NCBI GenBank assembly: GCA_903885595.1
Contig: CAISJJ010000068.1
Coordinates: forward strand, 10,671-74,670
DNA: 64,000 nucleotides
Reading direction: 5' to 3'
DNA from: an uncultured Bacteroidales bacterium
GTDB lineage: Bacteria > Bacteroidota > Bacteroidia > Bacteroidales > FEN-979
Part shown: in pieces, positions 28,954 to 57,825 of the stretch
How the letters are laid out: every line of letters begins with the position of its first letter
Position numbering within the stretch: position 1 is the first letter of the stretch
The notes under the pieces: model-generated
Told to the model about the DNA's origin: nothing
The model's database searches: none
The model's input: only the letters and a program-made list of their open reading frames with translations
Position numbers and translations under genes: made by a program

Positions 28954-30171
28954 ATGGACATTGTCATTACTGGTTTGCAATCTTATGATAATGATATAGG
29001 TTGTAATAGTATCAACCTTGCCCATGAATTTGCGAAGAACCATCGTGTACTATATGTAAATTATGCGCTTGACCGGCTTACCCTTTACCGCGAGCCAAAA
29101 AATCCGAAGGTTCTGTTCCGAAAAAAGATTATCAGGGGGGAAGCCGAGAACCTCATAAAAGTTGCCGATAATCTCTGGACGCTCTATCCAAAAACAGTAC
29201 TGGAATCGATAGGCCAGCTGCCAGTGAACTTCCTGTTTGACTTCCTGAATAAAATAAATAATAAACGCTTTGCAAGGCAGATTTCCATTGCCATGCAAAC
29301 GCTTGGGTTTTCTGATATCATCCTGTTTACCGACAATGATATGTTCAGGAGCTTCTACCTGAAAGAGTTACTGAAGCCCAACCTGTTCATCTATTATTCA
29401 CGCGACTACATGATAGGTGCCGACTGGTGGAAACGGCATGGAATCCGCATTGAAGCGGAGTTGATCAGAAAAGCCGATCTGGCGGTAGCCAACTCTGTGT
29501 ACCTGACCAATTACCTGAAAAAATTTAATTCTTGTTCCTATTATATCGGACAAGGCTGTGATGTCAGTGCATTTGATAGAAAACTGATTACCTCTGTTCC
29601 CGACGATATCCGAAACATGCCTAAACCTATCATCGGATATATCGGTGCATTGTTTACTTCGCGTCTCGACATTGACATTATTCACCTTTTAGCGACAAAG
29701 CACCCCGAATGGTCTGTTGTGCTTGTCGGACCCGAAGATGACGGGTTCAAAGGAAGTAAGCTGCATCAGGTAAAAAATATCCATTTTCTTGGAAGCAGGA
29801 ATCCCTCAGCCTTGCCTTCTTACTTATATGCCTTCGACGTTGCGATAAACCCTCAGATACTGAATGAGGTTACAATTGGGAATTATCCCCGGAAAATTGA
29901 TGAATACCTTGCCATGGGTAAACCGATAGTAGCCACAAAAACCGAAGCCATGGAGGTTTTTGAAGGATATACCTACCTTGCATCAACGGCCGGGGAATAC
30001 CTGAAATTGACCGAACTGGCCCTGGTGGAGGACAATGAGGATTTGGCCAGTCAGCGGGAAAATTTTGCAAGGAGTCATACCTGGGAGGCCAATGTAAAAG
30101 CTATCTTTGAAGCCATTGAATGTATGAAGAGAGATAAATCCCCAAAAACAGGTAACAATGACAATCGATAA
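28954..30171 (+). CDS. GT-B fold glycosyltransferase (GT1/GT4-type, TuaH-like)
   Basis: 405 aa. The C-terminal segment NPQILNEVTIGNYPRKIDEYLAMGKPIVATKTEAM is the GT-B nucleotide-sugar binding region. It is a close paralogue of the N-terminal about 395 aa of the 41423..43252 protein. Confidence 0.75.
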   Translation: MDIVITGLQSYDNDIGCNSINLAHEFAKNHRVLYVNYALDRLTLYREPKNPKVLFRKKIIRGEAENLIKVADNLWTLYPKTVLESIGQLPVNFLFDFLNKINNKRFARQISIAMQTLGFSDIILFTDNDMFRSFYLKELLKPNLFIYYSRDYMIGADWWKRHGIRIEAELIRKADLAVANSVYLTNYLKKFNSCSYYIGQGCDVSAFDRKLITSVPDDIRNMPKPIIGYIGALFTSRLDIDIIHLLATKHPEWSVVLVGPEDDGFKGSKLHQVKNIHFLGSRNPSALPSYLYAFDVAINPQILNEVTIGNYPRKIDEYLAMGKPIVATKTEAMEVFEGYTYLASTAGEYLKLTELALVEDNEDLASQRENFARSHTWEANVKAIFEAIECMKRDKSPKTGNNDNR

Positions 30172-31348
30172 AATTCATATTGGTGATAAGGCTTCCATTA
30201 AACACAAAATCACAGATAAAGACATTGAGCAGTTTGTCGATTTGACCGGAGATAATAATAAGCTCCATGTGAATGAGGAATATGCACGCAAAACGGAGTT
30301 TAAGCATCCGGTCGTTCACGGGATGCTGGGCGCTTCATTTATTTCAACCGTGATTGGGACCAAGCTTCCGGGCGATGGTGCGCTCTGGTACGCCCAAACC
30401 CTCGAATTTTTGAGACCAGCAAGGGTAGGAGATACCATAACCGTTACCGGTGAGGTAATCGGAAAAAATGATTCAACCAAAACCGTTGAAATTAAAACGG
30501 AAATTCTCAATCAGCACAAACAAGTAATAACTACCGGCGTTGCCAGGGTCAAATTGGTTGAGTTGCAAAAAGCACCGGAAATCATTCAGACCGGTACGGA
30601 TGAGAAATCAGAAAGGGTCGTAATTATCCTGGGAGCAACCGGAGGTATTGGACAGGCTGCTGCGCTAAAACTGGCTTCTGAAGGCTACCATCTCGTCCTC
30701 CATTATAATACCAACAAAAAACTTGCAGTGTCAATCAGGGAAGCTGTTCAGAAAACCGGCAGAAAAGCAATTGCAGTGCAGGCCGATCTACTTGACCCGT
30801 CTGCGGTTGGTTCCTTTATGGAGGCCGTGAACAGGGAGTTCACTTCGATATATGGTTTCGTAAATTGTTCCAGTGTTAAAATTCCCTCGGTTAAATTCAC
30901 CGACCTTGAATGGAGTTATCTTCAGGATCACCTGGACATAAATATTAAATGTTCTTTTCACATTCTTAAAGAGATCCTGCCGAAAATGGAGGTTCAGAAG
31001 TTTGGAAAAATTGTGTTTATTACAACCCAGGCCATCGAAACTCCAAATTCTGAGTGGCTTCATTATATCACGGCAAAATCGGCACTGCATGGCTTTGCAA
31101 AAGCGCTCGCCATTGAATACGCACCTAAAGGAATACAGGTTAACATGGTTTCGCCCGGTATGACTGATACCGATCTGCTTTCGGAGGTCCCGCAGAAAAT
31201 CAAATTGCTGTCAGCCGCCAAAACACCACTCCGGAGATTATGCACTCCCGGAGATGTGGCAAACAGTATCGCTTTTTTACTTTCCGACAGCGCAAATTTT
31301 ATAACCGGTGAAACAATCAGGGTAAATGGAGGACAAGTAATGATATGA
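30158..31348 (+). CDS. fusion protein: N-terminal MaoC-like (R)-hydratase/dehydratase hot-dog domain plus C-terminal short-chain dehydrogenase/reductase (FabG-like)
   Basis: 396 aa. The N-terminus LTGDNNKLHVNEEYARKTEFKHPVVHGML is the MaoC motif. From about aa 160, ILGATGGIGQAAALKLA (TGxxxGxG), YITAKSAL (YxxxK) and NMVSPG mark the SDR. Confidence 0.8.
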   Translation: MTIDKIHIGDKASIKHKITDKDIEQFVDLTGDNNKLHVNEEYARKTEFKHPVVHGMLGASFISTVIGTKLPGDGALWYAQTLEFLRPARVGDTITVTGEVIGKNDSTKTVEIKTEILNQHKQVITTGVARVKLVELQKAPEIIQTGTDEKSERVVIILGATGGIGQAAALKLASEGYHLVLHYNTNKKLAVSIREAVQKTGRKAIAVQADLLDPSAVGSFMEAVNREFTSIYGFVNCSSVKIPSVKFTDLEWSYLQDHLDINIKCSFHILKEILPKMEVQKFGKIVFITTQAIETPNSEWLHYITAKSALHGFAKALAIEYAPKGIQVNMVSPGMTDTDLLSEVPQKIKLLSAAKTPLRRLCTPGDVANSIAFLLSDSANFITGETIRVNGGQVMI

Positions 31349-33081
31349 ATGCACTTACTTTTTCTGAGTTGTTCCGGCTGAATGAAGAATTAGGTGAGTT
31401 GTTGCGTGAAAAAGAGGCAATTTCTCTCAAGATTTTGTCGAATGTTACCATGAATCAGCTTAAGCCCATTTTGGAGTATGCTCTTCGCAGCGAATCCCTG
31501 AATGCGGTCGCTGAAATGACCTCCTATGATAATATACTGCAGGAGAGCATGCATATACAAGGGAAAGCGATTCCTGTCGTTTTCTGGGAATTATGCAATC
31601 TTAAATCAAGTTTCGCCTTTGAAATAGAATATTATACGCCAGAGGAAATTTCCAGGTATGCAGAAAAAACGACGAAAGAACTTGAGCTGCTCTTTGATAA
31701 TCTTAGGCAGTCTCCATTGGTAATATTTAACCGGTTTTCGCACATCTTATTCACGAATCATACGATTACAGGAAATAATTTTGAACGGTTTGTTAAACAA
31801 CTGAATGATTTTTTAATTCAACATGCTCCGCCGAATTTCCTGCTGATCGATCTTGACCGTATTTTTAGTGCAATTTCCCTTGATGCTTCCGTAGATCTTA
31901 GAAATTACTATAGTTCAAAAGTATTGTATACCGTAAATTTTCTTAAATCATATACATCACAAATAGTCCCCGTGATCCTGTCAACCTATGCAAAGTCGCG
32001 GAAAGTGATCATTCTTGATTGCGATAATACCCTTTGGAAAGGCATTGTTGGAGAGGATGGATGGGAACACCTTGCGATTTCTGATAAAGACAAGGATGGG
32101 ATTTATTTTAAAGAGGTACAATGTATTTTAAAATCGCTGATAAAAAAGGGAATTGTGCTTTGCCTTTGCAGCAAGAATAATGCAGAGGATGTTGAGGAGG
32201 TCTTTCAACACCGGCACGACATGGTGCTGAAATCGGATGATTTTGTCATTAAAAAAATCAACTGGAATGACAAGGCAAGCAACATCAGGGAGATTGCCGG
32301 GGAACTCAATCTTGGAACCGACAGTTTTATCTTTGTTGATGATTCAGAATTTGAAATAAACCTTGTGAAGGAACAGTTGCCGGAAGTAAAAACAATCCAG
32401 GTTCCTGTTAAGCTTTTTCATTATCCCAGGATGATTCTTGATCATTTGCCGCTTTGTTTTTCCTTAAGCTTCACAAATGAAGACCTTGCCAGGGTGCAGA
32501 TGTACCAGCAGGAATTACGCAGAACCACCGAAAAAAGCAGGTTCCAGGATATGGATGATTATCTGGCATCGCTCGGAATTAAAGTGGTCATTTCTGAAAA
32601 AAATCCGGAGGAGATGGAGCGGCTGACCCAGTTAACGCAGAAGACAAATCAATTCAACCTCACAACAAAACGATATTTGCCCGGTGAGATGCAGCAGTTT
32701 TATCAGTCATCTCACACCGATGTTCTCAGTTTAAGTGTAAGCGATAAATTCGGGAATTTTGGAATTACCGGGCTTTGTATCATCAAATACTCGAAAAACA
32801 TTGCCGTCATTGATACGTTGCTGTTGAGTTGCAGAATCCTGGGACGAAATATAGAGTCAGTTTTTCTGATGGAGATCGTTAAGCGGGTGTACATGAAGAG
32901 ATATGACCTGATTCAGGCAACATATAAAAAAACTTTAAAAAATGGAATTGTTGAATCATTTTATGACAAGAGTGGATTTGCCCTTCTTGGAAGCGATAAT
33001 GATGAACGGCGCTATGAAACAACATGCCGGAAATTCCTGGGTAATGCAAGGCCTGTAAAATATATAAAGGTGATTTCCTAA
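31345..33081 (+). CDS. FkbH-like HAD-IIIC family protein
   Basis: 578 aa. The central HAD motif is VIILDCDNTLWKGIVGEDG, followed by CSKN and VDDS motifs. The C-terminal GNAT-like fold contains LLLSCRILGRNIE. This architecture is characteristic of the FkbH / HAD-IIIC family. Confidence 0.8.
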   Translation: MNALTFSELFRLNEELGELLREKEAISLKILSNVTMNQLKPILEYALRSESLNAVAEMTSYDNILQESMHIQGKAIPVVFWELCNLKSSFAFEIEYYTPEEISRYAEKTTKELELLFDNLRQSPLVIFNRFSHILFTNHTITGNNFERFVKQLNDFLIQHAPPNFLLIDLDRIFSAISLDASVDLRNYYSSKVLYTVNFLKSYTSQIVPVILSTYAKSRKVIILDCDNTLWKGIVGEDGWEHLAISDKDKDGIYFKEVQCILKSLIKKGIVLCLCSKNNAEDVEEVFQHRHDMVLKSDDFVIKKINWNDKASNIREIAGELNLGTDSFIFVDDSEFEINLVKEQLPEVKTIQVPVKLFHYPRMILDHLPLCFSLSFTNEDLARVQMYQQELRRTTEKSRFQDMDDYLASLGIKVVISEKNPEEMERLTQLTQKTNQFNLTTKRYLPGEMQQFYQSSHTDVLSLSVSDKFGNFGITGLCIIKYSKNIAVIDTLLLSCRILGRNIESVFLMEIVKRVYMKRYDLIQATYKKTLKNGIVESFYDKSGFALLGSDNDERRYETTCRKFLGNARPVKYIKVIS

Positions 33082-33125
33082 AGGTCTATCTTTGCAAAAA
33101 TCAGTCATAAACTCATTTTGTCAGC

Positions 33126-33362
33126 ATGGAAGAAAAAGTAAGGCGAATTATGTCCAGTGTATTTCTGGTAGATATTGAAAAAATTGATGAAAATGCTTCA
33201 CCTGAAACACTTCCCAAATGGGATTCGCTGGGGCATTTGAACCTGATAACATCCATTGAAGAAGAATTTGGAATCACACTGGATGATGAACAAATCATTG
33301 AGATGCTCAATTATAAACTGGTTTTAGAGGTTATCAGGGAGTGTTTGAAGGCTTCTTCCTGA
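33126..33362 (+). CDS. acyl carrier protein
   Basis: 78 aa. Contains the phosphopantetheine attachment motif WDSLGHLNLI (Ser codon 33225-33227). It is acidic and of four-helix size. Confidence 0.8.
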   Translation: MEEKVRRIMSSVFLVDIEKIDENASPETLPKWDSLGHLNLITSIEEEFGITLDDEQIIEMLNYKLVLEVIRECLKASS

Positions 33363-33974
33363 TCAGGGGCGCCAGGCTTTGGCTTCGTGGTTATATTGTC
33401 GTAACAAACGGGCAGGATTTCCGCTTACCACCGAATAGGGAGGAACGTCTTTAGTTACCACGCTGCCTGCCGAAACCACACTATGTTTTCCAATGACAAT
33501 CCCTGGAAAAATCACGCAATTGGCGCCAACCCAAACATCATCTTCAATGATAATGGGCGATCGCGTAAATCCCTGCTCAAGGATGGTTCTGGTAACATCT
33601 TCGTAATTATGACTCATTCCGGTCAGCAGGATTCCCTGGGCCAATCCGACATCATTTCCAATGGTGATAGGGCCGATGAGTGTGCAACCAAGGCCAACAA
33701 TACTGCGGTCGCCAATAATGATGTCTCCAACGCAATTGTTAATGGCCGTGAAATCTTCAACTGTTGAATAATTCCCGACGCTGAATTTGTTAAAAGGTAA
33801 AACATCAAGTCGGGTTCGCTTCCTGATTACTGCGCCCTTTCCTTTATGATGGATAAAAGGATTTATGAACCAGGCTACAAATTTCCGGGGCCTGGCCTGA
33901 TTCTTTGGCATCAAAATCCTTAAGGTCAATAATTTAAGTTGTGGATTCGATTTTATTTTTGCCGCTATGCCCAT
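33363..33974 (-). CDS. left-handed beta-helix (hexapeptide-repeat) acyl/acetyltransferase
   Basis: 203 aa. Hexapeptide repeats IGD.S.VG.G..L.G...IGN.V and VWVGANCVIFPGIVIGKHSVVSAGSVV, ending PPYSVVSGNPARL. It is a paralogue of the C-terminal domain of the 41423..43252 protein. Its stop abuts the ACP stop. Confidence 0.8.
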   Translation of the reverse strand: MGIAAKIKSNPQLKLLTLRILMPKNQARPRKFVAWFINPFIHHKGKGAVIRKRTRLDVLPFNKFSVGNYSTVEDFTAINNCVGDIIIGDRSIVGLGCTLIGPITIGNDVGLAQGILLTGMSHNYEDVTRTILEQGFTRSPIIIEDDVWVGANCVIFPGIVIGKHSVVSAGSVVTKDVPPYSVVSGNPARLLRQYNHEAKAWRP

Positions 33975-34028
33975 ATTTCACTTTTTATTATCAATGGATT
34001 TTCTTCCTGCCATAAAATGAACCTTTAT

Positions 34029-34970
34029 TTACACTGAAAGGTTTGAAAGTTTACCGGAATCAGATTTTACCAGTGCACAATAATTTATAGTGACTTTGAG
34101 CCTGATAATTTCATCCATGGGTAAATCTTCAACGGGGAGCACCAGCTCCTGTTCAATCTTTAGTTCGTTGCCGCCAATCAGGTTCCTGATCTCGTCAATT
34201 TGTTTAAAATGATAAACATGATCTATTGCGGGGCAATTCACACAGGTTGAGATAAATGCAACACCATCTGGTGTAAGCAACCTGCTTATTTTCAACAGTA
34301 ATTCTCCTGGATTTTCAACATGTTCCAGAACTTCACCCATCGTAATAAAATCAAATTTTCCGATGGGATCATATTCCAGGACATCTTTTACAATGTATTC
34401 AATATGAGATGAACCACCTGTAAAATAATTGATGAATGACCTGGATACCTCCATTGACATTTTACTGATATCGATCGTCGTATAATGGATGTCGGGACCA
34501 AGTATGTGAAAAGCGTCATTCAAAAATAAACCATGCCCTGGCCCAATCTCGAAATAGTGTTTTATTCTCCCCTTTTCGCTGTTAAGAGCGTTCAGCAGGA
34601 ACTGATACATCCTGTAGTGACTTCCCCAAAGAAATTGAGAGATAGCCAACCCGGTCATGTATGCTTTCATGCGAATATCGGCATTATATACCGCTTCTAT
34701 GGTTTGAGAGGTTTTCTCAGCTGGGTATCTCCCTGTTTTCATAAAATAACGCTGGCTGATCATCATGTCATTACACAACGTCAGGTATGAATCTACAGCA
34801 TAATCCAGTGGAATTTGCTGTGCATCCAGGTAACCCTGGTAATCATTTATAAACTGTTCTGCTTGGACAAAAAATGCCGGATCCTGTTTATTCAGATATT
34901 TCTCCAGTTTCATTTTTTGCAGTGGAGAACGTTTATAAACCAGTTGTAACAGTTGATCGAGATAACCCAT
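34029..34970 (-). CDS. class I SAM-dependent methyltransferase
   Basis: 313 aa. Motif I is YFEIGPGHGLF and the post-I/II region is FDFITMGEVLEHVENP. Confidence 0.75.
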   Translation of the reverse strand: MGYLDQLLQLVYKRSPLQKMKLEKYLNKQDPAFFVQAEQFINDYQGYLDAQQIPLDYAVDSYLTLCNDMMISQRYFMKTGRYPAEKTSQTIEAVYNADIRMKAYMTGLAISQFLWGSHYRMYQFLLNALNSEKGRIKHYFEIGPGHGLFLNDAFHILGPDIHYTTIDISKMSMEVSRSFINYFTGGSSHIEYIVKDVLEYDPIGKFDFITMGEVLEHVENPGELLLKISRLLTPDGVAFISTCVNCPAIDHVYHFKQIDEIRNLIGGNELKIEQELVLPVEDLPMDEIIRLKVTINYCALVKSDSGKLSNLSV

Positions 34971-35003
34971 AATCGGTTTAGTTATAAATGAACCTGTTTC
35001 CTG

Positions 35004-36299: not shown

Positions 36300-36300
36300 T

Positions 36301-43252: not shown

Positions 43253-43274
43253 ATGTCTTCCTTTTCGGTTTATC

Positions 43275-45598: not shown

Positions 45599-45607
45599 AC
45601 GTATCTG

Positions 45608-46810: not shown

Positions 46811-46890
46811 AAGATGGTTGTTTATGAAAAAATCAGATGAGCTGCTGAAGCAAAGTTAAATATAAATCAAACCGAATACAATATCACCAT

Positions 46891-47814: not shown

Positions 47815-47847
47815 GTTTACAGGTTCTATGTGTTTCAGTATTCATTT

Positions 47848-48838: not shown

Positions 48839-48979
48839 CTATTTTTCCATCATGTGACGGAGATGTTCCTCCTCCTTGGCTTTTTCTATTTTTTTTCTGT
48901 ATTGATACATTGCGGTTATATATCCGATTGGGGCGGCAATGAGCAGGCCAATGACCATATGTACAACAACACCTTCCAT
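48839..48979 (-). CDS. possible 46-aa small membrane protein (below the ORF-track threshold)
   Basis: My own translation is MEGVVVHMVIGLLIAAPIGYITAMYQYRKKIEKAKEEEHLRHMMEK. It has one hydrophobic helix and a charged tail. The ATG lies 3 nt after the upstream Wzy-like stop and fills an otherwise unexplained 187-nt gap in a tightly packed operon. Confidence 0.3.
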   Translation of the reverse strand: MEGVVVHMVIGLLIAAPIGYITAMYQYRKKIEKAKEEEHLRHMMEK

Positions 48980-48982: not shown

Positions 48983-50470
48983 TTAAACTGATAATTGAGG
49001 TTGATTTTCCAAGGAACTTTCTGCCAGTTGCTCGTCAAGGTCAGGCGCAATAAATACGTATGCCATACTTGCATATATCAGCAATCCCGTAGGAAACTGT
49101 CCAAGAACTGCATTCCCGTAACTCGCTATAATAATACCGAATATACCAGCCAAAAGGGCTCCTGTTTTAACAAATAAATCCTGGTTTTTAATCTCGAACA
49201 TACAGATAAAGGTTCCCTTGCCAATGATAAACCCGATGATGAACAGGTGAATATACAATCCGACAATTCCGGTTTCGGCCCATATCAGCACAAACCAGCT
49301 GTCGGTAGCAACATTTGCCAGGAAAGCGTCAGGTGTATATTGCAATGCCCTGTTTCCTGCGTGCCCGATACCTCCTCCGAAGGGCCTGGTCTTCAGATAT
49401 TGTTCAAAAAGCCGCTGATTTGCCAGACGAACCTGGTAAGAGGCATCTTCTTCAGGAACGAAGGCGGTTCGCATACGGTAAATCTGGTAGTTGGAATTGC
49501 CTATATAGGTAAAACGGAAGAATGAATAAAAAAGCAAAAAGAGGATGCTTCCAATAAAAATAACCTTAATGTTTTTCCGGAGAATCATGTATAGGAATAA
49601 TCCGGCCATAGGAACAAAAATGGCGCCGCGTGTACCCGAGCTTGACATTCCGTAGTACCCGGCGATCATGACCACAATCCAAAAAAAACGCTTTTTTGTA
49701 TCTTTTTCGTTAAACATCAGTATCGTTGCGATCAAACCGATTTGTGCCTGGGCAGCTCCAAACTGGCCTGCATCGGTATAGAAAGAAAATGCACGCAGAT
49801 TCCCGAGCAGGATATGGGTGACAGCACCACCTCCTTCATAAAGCCAGCGTTCTTCCCACGCATCGGGTCCTATGTTTATTTGTATCCATGCTTTAACGGA
49901 AGCAAGAATCGAGAAAATTCCCCAAATTATCAGAAATTTATCAAGGTGGCGGGGCGAGTTATACAGCATGAATACCAGCGGGATGGTCAGAAGCATGTAT
50001 AACCCGATCCCGCGAAATGAAGCAAACCATGCAGCTTTACTGATGGCTTCCGGATTAAACAACTCCATGCAAATGTAAATAAACCAGATGGCTGCCAGGA
50101 TGACAAGATCAAGTTTTAAGGACTTTATTGGCCATCTTCTGTCAAAATAATGAAAGAAAATAGAAATATAAATTACTACAAGGGTGATATCCATTACATA
50201 ACCAAGTTTAATGGGCAGATAACGCGTAAGTCCCATTAAAATGAAATTAATAATGAAGGCAAAGGTGAGCCCAAGTTCAGGCTTTGCAATTAACCGGTTC
50301 AGGGCATAAGCAAGAAATGGTAAAACCATCAATACAGATGCTACCGTAAATCCACCTCTGGCAATTACAAAACCGATCCCGACTGACATAACGAGTACTG
50401 AGCCAATCAGAAATGGATCTTTCAGACGGTCGGAGCCTGTTCTGTAATAAAATGGATTAATCTGATTCAC
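48983..50470 (-). CDS. O-antigen ligase/polymerase (Wzy-like) family membrane protein
   Basis: 495 aa with about 11-12 predicted TM helices and a large loop. The composition is typical of the Wzy_C family. The start codon is GTG. Confidence 0.7.
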   Translation of the reverse strand: MNQINPFYYRTGSDRLKDPFLIGSVLVMSVGIGFVIARGGFTVASVLMVLPFLAYALNRLIAKPELGLTFAFIINFILMGLTRYLPIKLGYVMDITLVVIYISIFFHYFDRRWPIKSLKLDLVILAAIWFIYICMELFNPEAISKAAWFASFRGIGLYMLLTIPLVFMLYNSPRHLDKFLIIWGIFSILASVKAWIQINIGPDAWEERWLYEGGGAVTHILLGNLRAFSFYTDAGQFGAAQAQIGLIATILMFNEKDTKKRFFWIVVMIAGYYGMSSSGTRGAIFVPMAGLFLYMILRKNIKVIFIGSILFLLFYSFFRFTYIGNSNYQIYRMRTAFVPEEDASYQVRLANQRLFEQYLKTRPFGGGIGHAGNRALQYTPDAFLANVATDSWFVLIWAETGIVGLYIHLFIIGFIIGKGTFICMFEIKNQDLFVKTGALLAGIFGIIIASYGNAVLGQFPTGLLIYASMAYVFIAPDLDEQLAESSLENQPQLSV

Positions 50471-50491
50471 AATTAAAATTACAAAAAATAA

Positions 50492-51298
50492 TCATTTGAA
50501 TGAATTAATTTTTTTAACTGCCATATTCATGTTATCGACCAGCACAAATTCAAACTCGTTCCGTGGATTAAAATAGGTTTTGATCTCATCCAGCCCACTC
50601 AGTTTCCACTCGATGATGAACAGCAGATCAGGATGCCCGCTTATGAAATTCATCGCTCCAGCAAGCACTTCCGGTTCCATACCCTCTGTGTCGATTTTGA
50701 TCATGATCTTGTCAGTTTTGTTTAATTTCAGCTGGTCTGTTACTGAATCAAACGTTCTGATTTCAACTTTTTCTATTTTTTTCAGTCCCACGATGGAATG
50801 ATCGTAATGCGTTGAAGCGGCCAAGTGGGAAGCTCCGGTGTTTATTGTTTCGAAAATGAAGTCCTCTTCACTGTTACTTGATCCAAGTCCAAAATTAAAC
50901 GGTGTGATTTTATGTCCGAGGTCATTTAACAGGATATTGATTTTTAAAGCAGAATAATTTTCTTTCGCTGGTTCAAATGCAAAGCATTGCAAACCCATTT
51001 TTGCCATGAGGACACTATAGGTGCCAATGTTTGCGCCAATGTCGATAAATACGTTGTACTCCTTGTAATGTTTGAAGAAAAACTGTTTTACATTCCATTC
51101 GTAGGCATAATTAGCAAACTGAAAGTCCAGAGTTCCCTTGCGTGAAAAAAAAAGTCCGATGCTGCTTTTGTATAGCCGGTTTCTACTGGTGGTCCTTTTG
51201 AATATGATGTATTTAATGGAGGTCAGGAGAAACAGGTATTCGCCATGCTTCATGTAATCAATTAAATAGCGATAAAAAGTTACCAGTTTTACAATCAT
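50492..51298 (-). CDS. FkbM-family methyltransferase
   Basis: 268 aa. Contains FIDIGANIGTYSV and CFAFEP. The C-terminal IKIDTEG.E..VL.G is the FkbM family signature. Confidence 0.8.
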   Translation of the reverse strand: MIVKLVTFYRYLIDYMKHGEYLFLLTSIKYIIFKRTTSRNRLYKSSIGLFFSRKGTLDFQFANYAYEWNVKQFFFKHYKEYNVFIDIGANIGTYSVLMAKMGLQCFAFEPAKENYSALKINILLNDLGHKITPFNFGLGSSNSEEDFIFETINTGASHLAASTHYDHSIVGLKKIEKVEIRTFDSVTDQLKLNKTDKIMIKIDTEGMEPEVLAGAMNFISGHPDLLFIIEWKLSGLDEIKTYFNPRNEFEFVLVDNMNMAVKKINSFK

Positions 51299-52677
51299 TT
51301 GATTCTTTTTGCAAGAAGCCGTATAGCATTTTCTTTGTAAAAAGCATATCCTTTTCTGAATATTTCAAAGAAGGAGATATCTATTTCCTGTTTCAAAAAT
51401 TTATAGCCGATAAAAATTCCGATGAGTGCAAAAACTATTGATGCAAGAGCTACAAATAACAACAGGGTTGTTACAGGGAGTTCAGGGAACAGGTAATGCA
51501 TTCCGAATACCGCAAATATATCACCCAGGATATTGGCAGATGTCATAAAGAGAACTTTCTGAAAATTTCGCTGTGGTTTATTGAGGCTATCCAGGGCGAC
51601 ACCGGTAAAACGGTCCAAAGGTAGCAGGGTACAATATACAACGAACACGATCATGATGTAGGATATCTCAGTAAGCGATGCCATGTATTGGGTTCCACCG
51701 ATAATAATGATAAACAACTTATTAAAGAAGAGACCAAGGATTGCTATAGCAATAAAAAGGAAAACAACGATTCCCGTGTACGAATAAAAGATTTCACGGA
51801 ATTTGTTCTGGTCATTATCAAGACTTGCTTTTGATAATTTGGGAAAAGCGGTAGTGGCAAAACTGATGAGTGGAATTTCAATGAGCTCAACATACTTGAG
51901 AGGGATTGCATATAAGGCAACGCCAATCGGACCGCAATAGGCGCTGAAGGAGATAATAAAACTATCGGCTCCTTTAAGCAGGCTGCTACCAACTTTGGTT
52001 CCCATTGAAAACTGGCCATACCTGAGAACCTCCTTCATCTTAATCCAAGAGATGTGTCTGAAAAATTCAATCCCTGTCCATTTTTTTATAAGGCAGAAAG
52101 CTGAAGTTGCAAAATTAGTCAGCAGATAAATCATCACAACTACAGTGATGTTTATTTTGATCAGGAAGTAGGCAGCGAAAATTATAATAAGAAAGGAGCA
52201 CAGGTTAAAAAAACGGATCCAGAATATTCTTTTGAAATTCAATTCAGCCTGGAAGATTGTCCAGGCGTAATTCCAGGGAAGGTTAATGAGCGCAAGGACC
52301 GGATACCAGTAACAAAAAACATCATAACCACTGCTATTCAGTGCATCGGGAATGAGGAATGTCAGACTCCACAGGATAATAGTGATTGGAATCAGGATTA
52401 AAAAACCGATGGCCCAACTGGAACCCAGGTAATACTTCCGGTCCGTTTCGGTAGGTGAGGATAAAAACCTTACCAGTGCTTCTTTACTGAGTCCAAACCG
52501 CATCATATCAATCAGGGAGGCAGGAGCGGTGAACAACACCCATTTACCGAAATCAGGGATGGAGAGCATGCGCATCAGGATCATAAAAGATAAAAGACCC
52601 ATGACAGCGGTGGAAAAATTTGCCGCTAAAGATAGAAAGTTTAGATCATTGACTAATTTAGATAGTGTCTTTTTCAA
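51295..52677 (-). CDS. oligosaccharide flippase (Wzx / polysaccharide biosynthesis protein family)
   Basis: 460 aa with about 12 TM helices of MOP-superfamily composition. It overlaps the FkbM gene by ATGA. Confidence 0.8.
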   Translation of the reverse strand: MKKTLSKLVNDLNFLSLAANFSTAVMGLLSFMILMRMLSIPDFGKWVLFTAPASLIDMMRFGLSKEALVRFLSSPTETDRKYYLGSSWAIGFLILIPITIILWSLTFLIPDALNSSGYDVFCYWYPVLALINLPWNYAWTIFQAELNFKRIFWIRFFNLCSFLIIIFAAYFLIKINITVVVMIYLLTNFATSAFCLIKKWTGIEFFRHISWIKMKEVLRYGQFSMGTKVGSSLLKGADSFIISFSAYCGPIGVALYAIPLKYVELIEIPLISFATTAFPKLSKASLDNDQNKFREIFYSYTGIVVFLFIAIAILGLFFNKLFIIIIGGTQYMASLTEISYIMIVFVVYCTLLPLDRFTGVALDSLNKPQRNFQKVLFMTSANILGDIFAVFGMHYLFPELPVTTLLLFVALASIVFALIGIFIGYKFLKQEIDISFFEIFRKGYAFYKENAIRLLAKRIK

Positions 52678-52678
52678 C

Positions 52679-55339
52679 CTAGATTATGTTCTTTTCATGA
52701 AACCGGAAAGTCAAAATCTGTTTCATCGTTCTTCTGAATTTAGACCTATGGCGCGGAAGTTCACCAAAGATGGCATCAAGGTATATCAATTCTACCCCAT
52801 TGAGAACGATTTGCGTATTTTGCTTGAAGAGTGGAATGAAGGCATTCAATGCCGTACTATCGGCAGTGGTCCATGAACGGTTTGCCCTTGTGACAAGTAA
52901 GGAGAAATCGAATTGCCGGATGAATTCCAGTGGGTATGGATTATTAATCAGGGAAGGTATTTCGACAAAAATATAATCAAAACTCTCCAAATCAATATGT
53001 TCATATCCGACCATCAAGGTTGCGAGGTCCTTTGCATCAAAGAAATTTTCTTTTATCGAATACTGGATCTCATCTTCGGCTGGAGGGATCAGTTCCCCAC
53101 CGGCAATATAGCTTGGATTTCCGCCTGTCTCCTTGACATAATTCAAGAACAGCACATTTTCACCAAATGATTTGAGTTTTCTGCTGAGTTCTCTACCGAT
53201 ACTGGTCTTGCCTTCTGAGTCGCGTGTACTGAAAAGAAGGATCATCACCGGCTTTTTATACTGTGTAATATTGGCTCTGACCAGGGCCAATTTAACATTT
53301 TGAGCCAATATTTCAACCAATCTTGGAATGATGAATCCGATGTCAACCGCATAAATTTGTTTTGCAATCTGGGGATAGACCCCGGCGACTTTGAGTTTAA
53401 TAAAGCGTTCAGCTCTTTCAGGTGTTTTGATCGTTGTATCAAACAATTCCATTGCAAGCAGCAAGGCTACAACCAGAATGAACCCGACGAAAGCGGCAAG
53501 GAGAACAAGTAACAGCATTTTTGACCTGATAGGGTTCAATGGGTAATAAGGAGGGTCGACTACCTTTATATTGGTTCTCAATTCATCATCCTGTTGTCGT
53601 AGTTTTGCCAGGTTCAGATCATGAAGCAGTTGTAAAAACTCACTTTCCGTAACGGCGATCAATCGTTCGATACGTTTCATTTCAGCTCCAAGGGGCGCAA
53701 ACACTTCATAAACATGCTGGAAATATTTTTTCCGTTCGGCTAAAACCCTGAATGCAGCTCTGCTTTCTTCATATGCGATGACATTTTTAAGCCATGCATC
53801 CAGTAATTCCTTGGTTGGTAATCCTTCAACACTGTTGACTACAAGGTACAAGCGGTCGATATTATCCTTTATAGCTTGTTTAATATTTTCTACCCTCGCT
53901 TTCAAACCCTCCACCTGGAGGATTGTTGCGGAATCGTTGCCAAGATCGATCTCAATGTTAGCTATCTGCATGGTAGTCTCCGACAATTCGTTTCGTAATC
54001 GGAGTATTGCGCTGGTGTTCAGCGAAAGTTTGGCATGGGCTTCCAGCTTTTTTTCAATGATTTTGATTGCAGCATCCGAAGAGGCGAAGGCAATTTGTTT
54101 GTTTTGAAGCGCAACGTCAAGTTCTTCCTTGGTTATGGCGATGATTTTTGTTTGCTCGTAATAGTTGATGATGTTGTTGCGCTCATTGAAAATCAACAGG
54201 TCGTTTTCGGCCTTTTTAAGCCTGCGTGCAGCATCCTCCAGCTGTCGCTTAAAATACTGGATTACTGCATCTGTTTGATTTTGCTTAAGCAATTTATAAT
54301 TTGCAATAAAAACGCGTGTTAAAAAGATGAGGGTTTGCTGGCAAATTCCCGGATCAGGGTTGGTGTAGGTCAATTTGACCAGGTCACTGCTCTGGATCCT
54401 GTATATGCCTATTGTTGAAAGAACCTTAATGCTGTAAAACCGGTCTTCCTCTGAACTCCATAATTTATAGATGAAATTATAATTATTCTGATGCCCGTAA
54501 GCCAGCAGCCTTTTAACGATTCTATCAAAAGCAGATGAATCCTGGGTTCCTCTTGTAACAGTGACCAGGGTATCGCTGCTGATAAAATAGTCATTTACTG
54601 AAGAGGATGAATCTCCTGCGGGTGAAGGCTCCGGTTCATATTCCTCTTCAGGTGCGGGAGAGGCCTCCGGTAAATTTTCAATACTGCTGACCAGGAGTTT
54701 TTGTCCGACCGAAATACTGTTGCCCCTTAAATCATTGTACGACATCAATTCGTCCACATTCAATCCATTTGCTTTGGCAATTGAGTACATCGTTTCGCCT
54801 CGCCTGACCACATGATATTTTTTATTTTCATTTGAACGGGAGCGTGACTGGGAATATTCTCCGTTTTGTTCGTTCAGATCATTCTGGTACAGCGACGTGT
54901 CAATTCTGGAGGTTTGCTTTGAAGGAGGGCGGTAATAACGTTTATCATTTCGTTTTGCTTTTTTTACGATATCAACAACATCGGCCGGAACTTTTGCAAG
55001 CAGTTCGTCGTAGTTTTCTTTTGAAATATAACGTGGATCAGCATGATCCAGCAAAAGATGTTGTGCAAGCAGACAAACCGAAACTTCCTCGAGTGTTTGT
55101 CTTGATTTAATAAGGTTGATGAGATTGTCAAACGAAGCAGCCGTTGCCATATAATCGACGGTAGCTTGCTGCTGAACAGAGTAGCCCGATGTAACCCCGG
55201 TATATATTGTCGTTTCGGATACATACGACCATTGACTTTTCCTGGTTAGAATAAAAACAACCGCGGCTATGATCAGAGGGACCAGAATCAGCAAAAGAAT
55301 ATGCCTCTGAAGTAACTTTAGGAAATAAATAATTTTCAT
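52679..55339 (-). CDS. polysaccharide co-polymerase / chain-length determinant (Wzc/GumC-like) with an inserted LysM domain and a degenerate C-terminal P-loop domain
   Basis: 886 aa. It has an N-terminal TM, a Wzz-like start (SYVSETTIY), LysM at aa 175-217 (YHVVRRGETMYSIAKANGLNVDELMSYNDLRGNSISVGQKLLV, nt 54689-54817), a long coiled-coil region and a second TM (LLLVLLAAFVGFILVVALLLA). The C-terminal Walker-A-like motif is FSTRDSEGKTS, and there is no Tyr-rich tail. Confidence 0.75.
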   Translation of the reverse strand: MKIIYFLKLLQRHILLLILVPLIIAAVVFILTRKSQWSYVSETTIYTGVTSGYSVQQQATVDYMATAASFDNLINLIKSRQTLEEVSVCLLAQHLLLDHADPRYISKENYDELLAKVPADVVDIVKKAKRNDKRYYRPPSKQTSRIDTSLYQNDLNEQNGEYSQSRSRSNENKKYHVVRRGETMYSIAKANGLNVDELMSYNDLRGNSISVGQKLLVSSIENLPEASPAPEEEYEPEPSPAGDSSSSVNDYFISSDTLVTVTRGTQDSSAFDRIVKRLLAYGHQNNYNFIYKLWSSEEDRFYSIKVLSTIGIYRIQSSDLVKLTYTNPDPGICQQTLIFLTRVFIANYKLLKQNQTDAVIQYFKRQLEDAARRLKKAENDLLIFNERNNIINYYEQTKIIAITKEELDVALQNKQIAFASSDAAIKIIEKKLEAHAKLSLNTSAILRLRNELSETTMQIANIEIDLGNDSATILQVEGLKARVENIKQAIKDNIDRLYLVVNSVEGLPTKELLDAWLKNVIAYEESRAAFRVLAERKKYFQHVYEVFAPLGAEMKRIERLIAVTESEFLQLLHDLNLAKLRQQDDELRTNIKVVDPPYYPLNPIRSKMLLLVLLAAFVGFILVVALLLAMELFDTTIKTPERAERFIKLKVAGVYPQIAKQIYAVDIGFIIPRLVEILAQNVKLALVRANITQYKKPVMILLFSTRDSEGKTSIGRELSRKLKSFGENVLFLNYVKETGGNPSYIAGGELIPPAEDEIQYSIKENFFDAKDLATLMVGYEHIDLESFDYIFVEIPSLINNPYPLEFIRQFDFSLLVTRANRSWTTADSTALNAFIPLFKQNTQIVLNGVELIYLDAIFGELPRHRSKFRRTMKQILTFRFHEKNII

Positions 55340-56148
55340 TAATCAATTTTATTTATTACGTTAAATTTTATGCCGGCAAACTCCTGCAGGAGCATGTAGG
55401 CATTATAGAAATTAAACCGCGATTCTTCATAGTCGGTAACTGCCTTACGATACATTTCATTGATGTAAGCCAATTCATATAGCGTGATCTGACCGTTGAG
55501 AAATTCTTTATCACCCATCTCTTTTTGAAGCGCCTGGGCATAAATATTTTCATTGGCAATTTTAAGAATACGTTGATTAACGATAAGCTGGTTATATTGA
55601 ACGATAATTAATTTCCGTAATTCAATTATTTGGTTGTCTTTGATTGCCATTGATTTTTCGACCTCTTTTGTTGCGGTTTTTATCCTGTTTTTACGATCCC
55701 AGAAGTCATCCATCGGCAAACGCACACTTACGCTGACAAGCGCCCGGTTATTGTCCTGGTACGATTGAAAGGTATTGCTGATTATCACCGGATTGGATAC
55801 ATCAAAATTCTGTGTATATGAATCCCAATAGTCTGTTTGTAACAATCCATCAATAAATAAATTCTGCATCCATTCCCTTTTGGCAGTTTTGATTTTATAT
55901 TTCCAGATAGCAATGTCTGCATCCTGCGACCGCAGTAAAGGAGAATTTACGATAGCGCTGTCAATAAGGTCTTCCAGCGGAGGAATGCGTAAGGTTATGT
56001 CATCCACAAACGGGTTGAATGTCGCGGCTGAATCCTGGTTGTTGCTGGAACCCTGAAAGAATCCTTGTCCAAAGAATAAAAGTGGAGAACAAAATAGAAT
56101 TAGGACCAATAAAAATGTATGTCTTGTTTTCATATCCACTTGTTGCAT
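55339..56148 (-). CDS. secreted half-size TolC/OEP-like protein (single outer-membrane-efflux-protein repeat)
   Basis: 269 aa with a signal peptide. The pattern LEDLIDSAIVNSPLLRSQDADIAIWKYKIKTAKREW....L, then RLPM.D...R...I..A..E.......... and ...F..G.IT..EL........A...Y......F....LLQEFAGI, follows one OEP repeat. That is about half the length of canonical TolC-family proteins. Confidence 0.5.
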   Translation of the reverse strand: MQQVDMKTRHTFLLVLILFCSPLLFFGQGFFQGSSNNQDSAATFNPFVDDITLRIPPLEDLIDSAIVNSPLLRSQDADIAIWKYKIKTAKREWMQNLFIDGLLQTDYWDSYTQNFDVSNPVIISNTFQSYQDNNRALVSVSVRLPMDDFWDRKNRIKTATKEVEKSMAIKDNQIIELRKLIIVQYNQLIVNQRILKIANENIYAQALQKEMGDKEFLNGQITLYELAYINEMYRKAVTDYEESRFNFYNAYMLLQEFAGIKFNVINKID

Positions 56149-56160
56149 TTTACGGTGTCG

Positions 56161-57393
56161 CTAGACATTTTCTTTTTGAATGAATACTGCGAATGTTCTG
56201 ATAATTAACTTTATATCTGTCCAAAATGAACTGTGTTCTGCATAATAATTATCAAGGGCAAATCTTTCCTCTTCCGACATTGTCCCTTTTGTACCGCGTT
56301 TTTCCACTTGCCAGAGTCCGGTAAGTCCGGCGGCAGCCCTGAAGCGTCGGCTCCATTTCTTTTTTGTCAGGGCCTCGGCTTCATTTAGTGGCAGGGGGCG
56401 GTTCCCGACAATTGACATATCTCCTTTCAGAATGTTGAATAATTGGGGCAATTCATCAATACTGGTCATTCGTATGAATTTTCCGACTTTCGTAATCCTC
56501 GGATCGTCCTTGATTTTCAGGAACGCCTTTTTTGCACTGCGTCGTTTGTTGGCCAGGCGTTCGCAAATTTCTTCCCCGTCATAATAAACAATTGGCGAAC
56601 AAGTGTTACCAGCAGGCAATTTGGCACATTCTGTACAGGATACCTCAACCGATTCACTGATATATTGATTCAGATGGGCGACATCTTTAATCCGTGCATC
56701 GGCATCGGGATACATCGAGCGGAACTTATAAAAATCAAAAATTTTATAGTTGGATCCGACACGTTTGGCAATATAATAAACTTTTCCCCTTGATTCAATC
56801 ATAATCGCAATGACGGCAAGCAACATGATGGGCGACAGGATAAGAAGTGCGAAAAGTGCAATGATTATATCGAAAATGCGCTTCGGTAAAGGTGTTTTAT
56901 ATGGCGTCATATCTTCATCCTGCAACGACATTGGCTTTGGAACATATTCTGTCTTGAATTTGTTCAGGAAAAGAATTCTGCTATGCAAATTATCAACATC
57001 TAATTTTTTATAATAAAAATCGTCAACGCCCATGTTGAAGGCCTCTTGTTTGATAACATCATCCCTGAAAAAGGATATAATGATAAAAGGGGTTTTGGGA
57101 TAGACCTTATTCAGTTTCAGTTTACGGAAAAACAATAACGCATTGATGCCGGGCAGTACAAATTCAGTAACAATGGCATCAATTTTTTGTTTTTCCTGAT
57201 AGACCTTTTCGAAACGGGTATCCTGGTCAAGGTCAAAAAGGTTAAACTGGTTATCTGTTAACCAATGGAGCGCAGCCAGCCCATTCGGTAGGTGTGTGAC
57301 GCTAAATAAATCGCTTTTTTCGAAAAGATCAATGGATTGCTGATCGTTTCCAATATAAAGGATTTTCAAACATCTGGCGGCATCTTCATCCAT
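56161..57393 (-). CDS. priming sugar-phosphate transferase (bacterial sugar transferase / WbaP-EpsE type) fused to an N-terminal atypical receiver-like domain
   Basis: 410 aa. The C-terminal part is KRIFDIIIALFALLILSPIMLLAVIAIMIESRGKVYY...RVG.....F..YKFRSM......DELPQLFNILKGDMSIVGNRP. The N-terminal about 150 aa aligns by eye to a CheY-like fold, with the acidic pair reading ND and the phospho-acceptor position reading Glu (VTEFVLPG, Glu77 codon 57163-57165). Confidence 0.85.
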   Translation of the reverse strand: MDEDAARCLKILYIGNDQQSIDLFEKSDLFSVTHLPNGLAALHWLTDNQFNLFDLDQDTRFEKVYQEKQKIDAIVTEFVLPGINALLFFRKLKLNKVYPKTPFIIISFFRDDVIKQEAFNMGVDDFYYKKLDVDNLHSRILFLNKFKTEYVPKPMSLQDEDMTPYKTPLPKRIFDIIIALFALLILSPIMLLAVIAIMIESRGKVYYIAKRVGSNYKIFDFYKFRSMYPDADARIKDVAHLNQYISESVEVSCTECAKLPAGNTCSPIVYYDGEEICERLANKRRSAKKAFLKIKDDPRITKVGKFIRMTSIDELPQLFNILKGDMSIVGNRPLPLNEAEALTKKKWSRRFRAAAGLTGLWQVEKRGTKGTMSEEERFALDNYYAEHSSFWTDIKLIIRTFAVFIQKENV

Positions 57394-57399
57394 AAAATA

Positions 57400-57798
57400 C
57401 TAGTTCCCCCTGCGTTGCGAGTATAAGTCCTTAAATTCCAGTCGCCGTTTTATTCTGGCAATCAATTCTTTGGGATTAAATGGTTTAAGCACATAATCGT
57501 CAGCTCCCATTTCAAAGCACTTAATTTTATCTGCGCTCTCTTCCTTCCCTGAAAGCATTATCAGCGGAATTTCATCAAAGAAGCCGCTTTCCCTGATCCT
57601 TCGAATAAACTCAAAACCATTTAAAACGGGCATTTCGACATCACAAATAATAACATCAGGAAGGTTCCCGGTCTGCAAATAGAAAAGGGCATCCATTCCA
57701 TTACTTATCGAAGTGACTTCGAAGTCCTTGTTAAAGGTATTTTCGATGATAAACCGGATACTCTTTTCATCATCAATCGCGAGTATCTTTTTCTTCAT
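57400..57798 (-). CDS. single-domain response regulator (CheY-like receiver)
   Basis: 132 aa with canonical residues: ILAIDDE, DVIICDVEMPVLNG, LIMLSG, VLKPF. Confidence 0.9.
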   Translation of the reverse strand: MKKKILAIDDEKSIRFIIENTFNKDFEVTSISNGMDALFYLQTGNLPDVIICDVEMPVLNGFEFIRRIRESGFFDEIPLIMLSGKEESADKIKCFEMGADDYVLKPFNPKELIARIKRRLEFKDLYSQRRGN

Positions 57799-57817
57799 GA
57801 AATCTTATTTTGGTAAG

Positions 57818-57825
57818 CAAATATA
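57818..57825 (-). promoter_or_regulatory. candidate -7 promoter box TATATTTG (minus strand) heading the glycan super-operon
   Basis: Matches TAnnTTTG and lies 20 nt upstream of the receiver gene ATG at 57798. It is the only sizeable upstream spacer (94 nt) of the block. Confidence 0.4.

Follow-up and report, generated by a model that had tools for sequence, protein, structure and literature searches.

A predicted Wzx/Wzy-type glycan locus of uncultured Bacteroidales with a half-size TolC-like protein encoded beside a LysM-bearing co-polymerase

Core genes of the locus and their conservation

We analysed a 64-kb stretch of DNA from an uncultured Bacteroidales bacterium (GenBank assembly GCA_903885595.1, contig CAISJJ010000068.1, positions 10,671 to 74,670 of the forward strand; hereafter the window), which carries a long surface-glycan gene cluster. 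The window is part of a 109-kb metagenome contig. On the minus strand, 21 open reading frames (ORFs) run in one direction from 57798 to 33363, separated by gaps of -22 to +80 nt that are mostly <35 nt and include several overlaps. A first-pass annotation, made from the letters and an ORF list, had described the same 21 ORFs, gaps and upstream spacer of 94 nt, and the ORF listing and gap calculation agree with it. Its picture of a long surface-glycan locus with Wzx, Wzy, a co-polymerase and embedded two-component proteins also stands, as all the domains that it had named were recovered by Pfam and NCBIfam searches, a check it had itself proposed. Read from the upstream end, the core genes are the following.

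57400-57798, minus strand: stand-alone receiver (REC), a CheY-like single-domain response regulator of 132 aa (Pfam Response_reg, E 1.9e-28)
56161-57393, minus strand: priming phosphoglycosyl transferase (PGT), 410 aa (Pfam Bac_transf, E 1.9e-59, and Response_reg, E 1e-9)
55339-56148, minus strand: predicted half-size TolC-like outer-membrane protein (half-TolC), 269 aa, with signal peptide (Pfam OEP, E 3.3e-14)
52679-55339, minus strand: LysM-bearing PCP-2-like polysaccharide co-polymerase (PCP), 886 aa (Pfam LysM, E 1.5e-12; Wzz and GNVR below gathering)
51295-52677, minus strand: Wzx-type flippase, 460 aa, with multiple transmembrane (TM) segments (Pfam Polysacc_synt, E 5e-11, above gathering)
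48983-50470, minus strand: Wzy_C-family polymerase or ligase, 495 aa (Pfam Wzy_C, E 4.2e-9, above gathering)

Relatives of the locus were collected by scanning one genome per GTDB species with a PCP profile. This gave at least 559 matching stretches, of which the best 80 were examined; all of these are metagenome-assembled genomes (MAGs) labelled Bacteroidales, Prolixibacteraceae, Draconibacterium, Mariniphaga, Lentimicrobiaceae and similar. For 66 loci with enough upstream sequence, the window proteins were searched against all locus ORFs, with the following counts.

Stand-alone REC: 64 of 66 loci, directly upstream of the PGT gene
REC-PGT: 64 of 66 loci
Half-TolC: 66 of 66 loci, always between PGT and PCP
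Wzx: 62 of 66 loci
Wzy: 65 of 66 loci

The core order REC, REC-PGT, half-TolC, LysM-PCP, Wzx, Wzy is constant among the related loci, and all six components are also present in the locus of a distant half-TolC relative (L106). The combination is conserved in Bacteroidota, both for these components (62-66 of 66 loci) and for the tail of the cluster, which is found in 17 relatives (see below). In 41 of the 66 loci the cluster adjoins uvrB-rhomboid-mutL. Since this neighbourhood persists down to 36-38% PCP identity, it points to vertical inheritance rather than to a mobile island. Going by sample names, the module occurs in uncultured Bacteroidales from lake and other environmental metagenomes; a look-up of cluster members returned no cultured organism.

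A single-repeat TolC-like protein

The first-pass annotation had seen no Wza/Poly_export-type protein, which holds true for the 64 kb, but it had overlooked the half-TolC gene at 55339-56148 and with it a possible exporter. The Pfam OEP match of the 269-aa protein is a single stretch, covering positions 1-185 of the 187-position repeat model and spanning the whole mature protein. In other words, the OEP repeat fold of the TolC/outer-membrane factor (OMF) family is present, whereas the two tandem OEP repeats per protomer are not. An AlphaFold2 model built with 44 homologues (mean pLDDT 78; helices >90; strands 51-68) starts with a half-length helix and a beta-hairpin region, followed by one helix of 71 residues and another of half length, which corresponds to exactly one TolC repeat. 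When the model was compared with the PDB using Foldseek, all 39 matches up to E 0.07 were TolC-, OprM-, CusC-, CmeC-, VceC-, MtrE-type and similar channels, with TM-scores of ~0.53 on the query length and ~0.33 on that of the targets, which are twice as long.

The 110 homologues are mostly 235-275 aa long, with a few shorter fragments, and many are named 'TolC family protein' in their sources. Among 1.84 billion representative proteins, a family profile matched only 738 with E<=1e-3 and 443 with E<=1e-10. Of the top 150 matches, nearly all are ~220-295 aa long, apart from a few fragments, and canonical TolCs barely score. The half-TolCs therefore form a separate single-repeat family rather than a set of truncated TolCs; it comprises hundreds of 50%-identity clusters.

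The constant neighbour of the half-TolC gene across the related loci is the PCP gene. In the window the half-TolC stop and the PCP start share 1 nt; the distance between them is -14 to +17 nt in the 74 loci with a placeable PCP start, 35 of which have such a 1-nt overlap. A membrane-fusion protein or an RND or ABC pump as partner of the half-TolC was not found nearby, either in the window or in the related loci. Full-text literature searches returned neither a TolC-type partner of a PCP nor a half-size or single-repeat TolC.

The LysM-bearing co-polymerase

The PCP begins with a TM helix and continues with a LysM domain (176-217), predicted to lie in the periplasm, and an extended helical stretch; a second TM helix (~611-633) then leads to the cytoplasmic P-loop domain of ~250 aa. 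A profile from 21 members aligned residues 526-739 with residues 351-584 of E. coli Wzc (7nhr, E 6.6e-4), and PslE (9v6l) was aligned as well. The C-terminal domain matched MinD (4v02, E 2e-5) when the profile was compared with the PDB; a PDB search with the single sequence gave no informative match for this domain. The Walker A motif has two invariant residues, G710 and K711, followed by a nearly invariant T712. No DxD motif was found to be invariant; E793 is, at a Walker-B-like position.

Of the features of PCP-2a proteins and bacterial tyrosine (BY) kinases, the two TM helices, the helical periplasmic domain, a GNVR-type segment and Walker A are present, whereas the C-terminal tyrosine cluster is not: the last 40 aa hold 0-2 Tyr in 76 of 83 orthologues and none in the window protein. 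The locus contains no Wzb phosphatase. Because both the tyrosine cluster and Wzb are lacking, the cytoplasmic domain resembles the BY pseudokinases recently described for EpsV/EcpK of Myxococcus, where such proteins serve as scaffolds for PCP-2 proteins (PMC12004946).

At least 740 proteins of the collection searched belong to this family. Those with a name are all Bacteroidota/Bacteroidales MAGs, with one exception, a member of a 90%-identity cluster that was binned as an alphaproteobacterium. Their source labels read 'LysM peptidoglycan-binding domain-containing protein' or use generic exopolysaccharide terms, and full-text searches found no literature on a LysM-bearing PCP or Wzc in Bacteroidetes. 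Four homologues of ~780 aa (P0073, P0077-P0079), 63-66% identical over the aligned ~70% of the query, have no LysM, so the domain is not obligatory in the family.

A stand-alone receiver and a receiver-fused priming enzyme

The stand-alone REC is a single-domain response regulator with an intact phospho-acceptor, encoded together with the PGT. Of 65 distinct orthologues, 63-65 retain its DD pair, acceptor D53, S83 and K105. The PGT itself has an N-terminal receiver-like domain (~9-149), a re-entrant helix (169-200) and a catalytic domain like that of the small monotopic PGT (monoPGT) PglC. In the AlphaFold2 model, residues 9-149 adopt a (beta-alpha)5 receiver fold (pLDDT 86-94), and in Foldseek this part matches many receiver domains (TMt ~0.8); the catalytic domain matches PglC (8e37, E 1.6e-11, TMt 0.77). 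The catalytic pair D313-E314 is invariant among orthologues. Bac_transf domain, D313/E314 and PglC fold together identify a polyprenyl-phosphate PGT that starts the repeat unit; it lacks a four-TM bundle and so is not a large WbaP-type monoPGT.

When the orthologues were aligned with the HMM of the stand-alone receiver, the acceptor position of the fused domain was found to be Glu in 59 of 72 and Asp in 4 of 72; neither the acidic pocket nor the conserved Lys is kept. Because the acceptor is mostly Glu and both pocket and Lys are lost, the fused domain is best regarded as a pseudo-receiver that cannot be phosphorylated, as judged from residue conservation. Four further invariant residues, the cysteines C253, C256, C265 and C277, lie in an insertion (~250-280) of the catalytic domain that PglC does not have. 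The model is of low confidence in this insertion, which may be a metal-binding element.

In two loci of metagenome SUTE22-1 (L107/L108, genes 6728-9638), which like L106 are among the most distant half-TolC relatives looked up, the stand-alone REC is followed by a 277-aa PGT without fused receiver and then by a 239-aa half-TolC; the genes upstream of the module encode two PAS hybrid kinases, a further receiver and a sigma-54 activator. Because this unfused PGT still adjoins a stand-alone REC, the REC-PGT pairing appears to be older than the receiver fusion. Four other loci (L006, L028, L031 and L050) carry two tandem REC and PGT pairs ahead of the half-TolC and PCP genes.

There is direct experimental precedent for post-translational control at the priming step: in Myxococcus the single-domain response regulator EpsW, when phosphorylated (EpsW~P), activates the PGT EpsZ (PMC12802240). 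The same paper notes in its discussion that receiver domains occur on small monoPGTs; the text of a preprint surveying such enzymes (SmPGTs) does not mention receiver fusions (PMC11257628).

Transferases, modification genes and the tail block

Between and downstream of the core genes lie transferase and modification genes, followed by a tail block that ends with two kinases.

50492-51298, minus strand: FkbM-family methyltransferase (TIGR01444, E 3.2e-24), a variable gene that is missing from most relatives
48839-48979, minus strand: 46-aa ORF located between the Wzy gene and that of the first GT2, encoding a single TM helix and a charged tail
46891-48795, minus strand: two soluble-type GT2 glycosyltransferases (GTs), 315 and 307 aa (Pfam Glycos_transf_2, E 4.7e-22 and 1.8e-24)
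44408-46810, minus strand: two paralogous multi-TM GT2s, 400 and 396 aa, 44% identical, with QxxRW and a weak EpsU match
43275-44411, minus strand: GT4 glycosyltransferase (Pfam Glycos_transf_1, E 5.2e-30)
41423-43252, minus strand: TuaH-like GT fused to an LbH O-acyltransferase, 609 aa
40245-41444, minus strand: PgaC-like multi-TM GT2, 399 aa, without QxxRW (TIGR03937, E 2.8e-24, full model length, below cut-off)
38540-40261, minus strand: right-handed beta-helix protein with a type-A C-terminal sorting domain of the type IX secretion system (T9SS) (Pfam Beta_helix, E 2.6e-14)
37722-38528, minus strand: class-I S-adenosylmethionine-dependent methyltransferase, 268 aa
35004-37713, minus strand: two hybrid histidine kinases, 470 aa (one TM) and 431 aa (soluble) (Pfam HisKA/HATPase_c/Response_reg)

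Including the inserted cassette described below, the cluster encodes three multi-TM GT2s of ~400 aa, two soluble GT2s, one GT4 and two TuaH-like GTs, and for modification an FkbM-type and two class-I methyltransferases, two LbH domains, and FkbH, acyl carrier protein (ACP) and MaoC-SDR. Hydropathy analysis gives about 10-12 hydrophobic segments for Wzx, as in flippases of the MOP superfamily. The 46-aa ORF has homologues at the equivalent position in 11 related loci and is probably a real small membrane protein of the system.

The first-pass annotation had proposed that synthase-like components are mixed with Wzx/Wzy parts. The two paralogous GT2s do carry QxxRW (QRTRW and QRKRW), which is kept in 51 of 57 and 22 of 22 orthologues, but no Pfam match to a PilZ/c-di-GMP receptor, a TPR-porin or a synthase co-polymerase was found in the locus. 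We therefore rejected a hybrid of Wzx/Wzy and synthase pathways. Since synthase partners are absent and the best named weak relative is EpsU, from a Wzx/Wzy-dependent pathway, the QxxRW GT2s are here treated as putative membrane-embedded GTs of the Wzx/Wzy pathway.

The sorting domain of the beta-helix protein scores 27.9 bits with Por_Secre_tail PF18962 (cut-off 27) and 26.9 bits with TIGR04183 (cut-off 23), and the N-terminus is hydrophobic, so that sorting domain and signal peptide, the hallmarks of type-A T9SS cargo, are both present. It is probably a surface glycanase, lyase or epimerase; a single-sequence PDB search gave no informative match. Both hybrid kinases have the H-box and the REC Asp. 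According to a metagenome scan with the 470-aa kinase, the tail (PgaC-like GT2, beta-helix protein, methyltransferase and both kinases) is collinear in 17 relatives, with 59-97% kinase identity. It moves as a block and is inverted in one locus (L055). In five distant loci the beta-helix gene is located between Wzx and Wzy, and hybrid-kinase genes recur inside or beside the core of distant loci; in L006, Wzy is followed by a hybrid kinase of 1044 aa whose sensor domains are CHASE4 and GAF.

T9SS cargo genes are also found beside the locus. An S8 peptidase with Por_Secre_tail is encoded at 17249-18949 (plus strand), and a cargo operon at 23374-28929 (plus strand) encodes a PKD/CHU_C protein, a PorP/SprF-family protein and a 1191-aa Por_Secre_tail protein with no further recognised domain. 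The adjacency of this operon to the glycan genes, which had been pointed out before, is real, but in relatives the cargo gene is just the convergent neighbour.

An inserted decoration cassette

The two convergent blocks of the layout, which meet stop to stop at 33362/33363, the ends of the ACP gene (plus strand) and the LbH gene (minus strand), had been taken for one unit. The layout and the junction were confirmed; the unity was not. In the closest relative (L087, 92% nucleotide identity) blastn joins window position 34997 directly to 28945, and the same is true of seven more relatives. Because this join is seen in all eight aligned relatives (64-92% nucleotide identity to the window), 28946-34996 is a strain-specific insertion of ~6.05 kb and not the conserved half of a unit. 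The conserved system extends from 57798 to 35004.

28946-34996, both strands: strain-specific accessory decoration cassette, ~6.05 kb (blastn against relatives), with the genes below
34029-34970, minus strand: class-I methyltransferase MT313
33363-33974, minus strand: acyltransferase LbH203
33126-33362, plus strand: ACP
31345-33081, plus strand: FkbH
30158-31348, plus strand: MaoC-SDR fusion
28954-30171, plus strand: TuaH-like GT405 (405 aa)

The insertion thus carries the last two minus-strand genes besides the plus-strand block. It is located in the spacer of ~23 nt between the last kinase gene and the convergent gene for the 1191-aa T9SS cargo protein, with GAAA at either junction. Both parts of the 609-aa GT-LbH fusion have a paralogue in the cassette: the N-terminal 397 residues share 71% identity with GT405, and the C-terminal part shares 56% with LbH203. 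Because of this paralogy the cassette appears to be functionally tied to the locus; many relatives have the fusion in two tandem copies instead. On the DNA level, the GT regions form an inverted repeat of 71-75% identity (28953-29981 in the cassette versus 42225-43253 in the fusion gene), which could be a substrate for inversion or recombination.

In polyketide pathways, FkbH loads a glycerate-derived unit on an ACP. By analogy, we infer that the cassette could supply an unusual acyl-ACP donor to LbH203. Literature searches for FkbH in polysaccharide loci returned only polyketide papers, so the glycerate-derived identity of the acyl group is a guess.

Control region and transcription

Upstream of the cluster the following elements were found.

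57893-59932, minus strand: uvrB, the nearest same-strand gene upstream of the cluster
57799-57892, minus strand: 94-nt spacer between uvrB and the first cluster gene, a candidate promoter region with a Bacteroidetes-type -7 box
57818-57825, minus strand: -7-type box TATATTTG, 19 nt ahead of the ATG of the first gene

The box TATATTTG is a candidate promoter of the cluster and no more, because TANNTTTG (TAnnTTTG) occurs at chance level across the window (61 found versus 61.6 expected). A second TAnnTTTG copy lies at 46851-46858, within the 80-nt gap 46811-46890. Intrinsic terminators in the window are not above chance (17 sites versus 18.4 expected), a sigma-70 promoter scan of the window gave nothing beyond the shuffled expectation, and an Rfam scan of the whole window had no match. 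As the terminator, sigma-70 and TAnnTTTG scans are all at chance, no conclusion on transcript structure is drawn from them.

At the position of the 80-nt gap, three relatives (L002, L003 and L018) have an LbH acetyltransferase gene on the opposite strand, and in five others (L004, L005, L020, L021 and L024) Wzy is encoded on the opposite strand. Because of these genes a single obligatory 24-kb transcript is unlikely; an internal promoter near 46850 is plausible, and in the genomes of some relatives the cluster is split into several transcription units.

The GC content of the block (0.38-0.43) is the same as that of its flanks, so 'island', as applied to it earlier, is a descriptive word only. 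A horizontally acquired genomic island was ruled out by this flank-like GC content together with the uvrB-rhomboid-mutL neighbourhood in the relatives.

Proposed pathway and alternatives

We consider it reasonably probable (about 60%) that a secreted or capsular polysaccharide is made here by a Wzx/Wzy-type pathway in which a response regulator controls initiation and the exit duct is of TolC type. PGT, flippase and PCP place the locus among the Wzx/Wzy systems, and the earlier view of it as unusual and self-regulated is supported. From gene content, domain folds, residue conservation, synteny, translational coupling and the indel, as observed above, we infer the interactions, direction of regulation, oligomeric state and chemistry of the following scheme.

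The hybrid kinases at the end of the cluster would control phosphorylation of the stand-alone receiver. The phospho-receiver would then dock on the pseudo-receiver of the PGT as a receiver-receiver pair and switch the enzyme on, in analogy to EpsW~P and EpsZ, so that control would be post-translational and act at the first committed step. Wzx would flip the repeat units, and Wzy together with the PCP-2-like protein would polymerise them. The LysM domain in the periplasmic part would tether the PCP to peptidoglycan, while its P-loop domain may act like a pseudokinase. The polymer would leave the cell through a homo-oligomer of the half-TolC, which would be co-translated with the PCP and replace Wza/OPX; six chains would give a TolC-like 12-strand barrel, and eight would match a PCP octamer. 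At the cell surface the T9SS-exported beta-helix enzyme may trim or modify the polymer. The variable genes (FkbM, methyltransferases and the 6-kb cassette) would diversify decoration between strains. Within the cassette, FkbH, ACP and MaoC-SDR would make a glycerate-derived acyl-ACP from which LbH transfers the acyl group, with the TuaH-like GT and the methyltransferase as additional decoration enzymes.

A bolder proposal goes further. All catalogued outer-membrane routes of Wzx/Wzy and ABC pathways use Poly_export proteins, of three classes (PMC9603273). The locus might represent a fourth, OPX-independent route, in which a six- or eight-fold half-TolC duct stands tip to tip on the helical periplasmic domain of the LysM-anchored PCP and the PGT is gated by the phospho-receiver; the half-TolC would then be a living pre-duplication form of TolC. 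We put the odds of this full version somewhat below even.

Several observations weigh against the proposed pathway. An OPX gene could lie elsewhere in the genome, as the window covers 64 kb of the 109-kb contig. The beta-strand part of the half-TolC is modelled with modest confidence (pLDDT 51-68). The Wzz and GNVR scores of the PCP are below Pfam gathering, and its C-terminal domain matches P-loop proteins at profile level only. Pfam Wzy_C spans WaaL and PglL ligases as well as polymerases. Neither hybrid kinase has a recognisable sensor domain and the locus has no Hpt, so that the phosphorelay is incomplete on paper. The opposite-strand genes inside the clusters of relatives argue against one obligatory operon. 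Finally, all members of the family come from MAGs or metagenomes.

The most probable alternative is an ordinary capsular polysaccharide (CPS) or exopolysaccharide (EPS) locus whose Wza/OPX protein, perhaps with a beta-barrel partner, is encoded elsewhere. The half-TolC would then be an accessory protein of the periplasm or outer membrane and not the polymer conduit; it might serve as a scaffold, modulate chain length or take part in efflux. Many bacteria do have OPX genes that are unlinked from some of the pathways they serve (PMC9603273), and with 64 kb of the genome examined, the universal use of Poly_export proteins in the catalogued routes counts for this explanation, as does the modest confidence of the barrel model. 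The OPX protein of Wzx/Wzy pathways is missing from the window: no Poly_export/Wza domain was found in the ~54 larger ORFs scanned across it. On the other hand, Poly_export is likewise absent from the ±10-kb gene tables of the related loci, including the Pfam tables of L001, L002, L004, L006 and L106, and no MFP, RND or ABC partner is encoded nearby. The half-TolC is present in every one of the 66 loci, where its gene lies between those of PGT and PCP and overlaps or comes close to the PCP start, and its fold matches outer-membrane channel proteins only. We therefore regard an exporter encoded elsewhere as unlikely.

It is also conceivable that no free polymer is made. The product could be an O-antigen- or A-LPS-like (anionic lipopolysaccharide-like) anchor or a protein O-glycan, with the Wzy_C protein as a WaaL/PglL-type ligase, and it could tether T9SS cargo. 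Porphyromonas attaches its T9SS cargo to A-LPS, which it makes by a Wzx/Wzy route; further points in favour are the ligases included in Wzy_C, the T9SS-sorted protein inside the cluster and the adjacent T9SS cargo and PorP/SprF genes. However, there is a single Wzy_C gene, so the ligase reading leaves no polymerase, and a P-loop PCP with a dedicated partner resembling an outer-membrane channel is typical of CPS/EPS export and not of O-antigen ligation; the cargo operon, moreover, is merely a convergent neighbour in relatives. This makes a tethered product quite improbable. Still less probable is a patchwork of separately transcribed, unrelated loci (core; GT block; synthase-like GT2, beta-helix protein and kinases; FkbH cassette), for although the 6-kb cassette was inserted separately and is specific to the strain, the 80-nt gap holds a second TAnnTTTG box, opposite-strand genes occur in relatives there and at Wzy, and the tail moves as a block, as in L055, the GT and tail blocks are collinear with the core across relatives at 59-97% kinase identity, the gaps are mostly short with several overlaps, terminator-like sites do not exceed chance and kinase genes recur inside or beside the core in distant loci.

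The earlier description of the locus as undescribed still applies, as literature searches found no publication on the module. Since it is widespread, with at least 559 stretches among the GTDB species genomes, it probably makes a major, uncharacterised matrix polymer. If the proposed pathway with a TolC-type duct holds true, the duct together with the PCP would be a new exit solution for polysaccharides beside the OPX routes and would link polysaccharide export mechanistically to tripartite efflux and type I systems, while the form of TolC that is long assumed to have preceded its duplication could be studied directly in the single-repeat family. Likewise, the pairing of REC with a pseudo-receiver-PGT would extend the EpsW-EpsZ finding to another phylum and another PGT class, and would offer a compact two-protein system for receiver control of the first committed glycan step.

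Comparison with known systems

The EPS system of Myxococcus xanthus shares several features with the locus. It is Wzx/Wzy-dependent, the multi-TM GT2s described here have weak matches to EpsU, and its PCP works with a kinase-like domain without phosphorylated Tyr residues (PMC12004946). The two systems differ in their priming enzymes, as EpsZ is a large WbaP-type monoPGT that lacks the dimerisation beta-hairpin, whereas a small PglC-like PGT with fused pseudo-receiver is found here. EcpK is separate from EpsV; in the window the P-loop domain is fused to the PCP, which in addition bears LysM. WzaX and a beta-barrel stand in Myxococcus where we find a single-repeat TolC-like protein and no Poly_export, and the input there is the Dif chemosensory system, in contrast to the hybrid histidine kinases of this locus.

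With Wza-Wzc of the E. coli group 1 capsule and colanic acid, and with PslE/PslD of P. aeruginosa Psl, the locus shares a PCP with two TM helices, a helical periplasmic part and a P-loop, whose gene adjoins that of the presumed outer-membrane partner. Here, however, Wza or PslD, the Tyr cluster and Wzb are lacking, LysM is inserted into the PCP, and the outer-membrane partner has a TolC fold.

Members of the TolC/OMF family have in common with the half-TolC the OEP domain and its repeat of helix, strand, strand, long helix and helix. They have two repeats in ~430-500 aa, whereas the half-TolC has one in 235-275 aa, so that a TolC-like 12-strand barrel, formed by three chains of TolC, would take six of the half-size protein. 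Their partners are an MFP and an RND, ABC or MFS pump; the corresponding neighbour here is a PCP.

The closest architecture for the priming enzyme is that of small monoPGTs with a fused receiver, which likewise combine a Bac_transf core with a receiver, have been noted in sequence-similarity-network surveys and are mentioned in PMC12802240. No function or mechanism has been reported for these fusions; the enzyme described here is set apart by its degenerate receiver (Asp to Glu), the four-Cys insertion and the canonical stand-alone REC encoded beside it.

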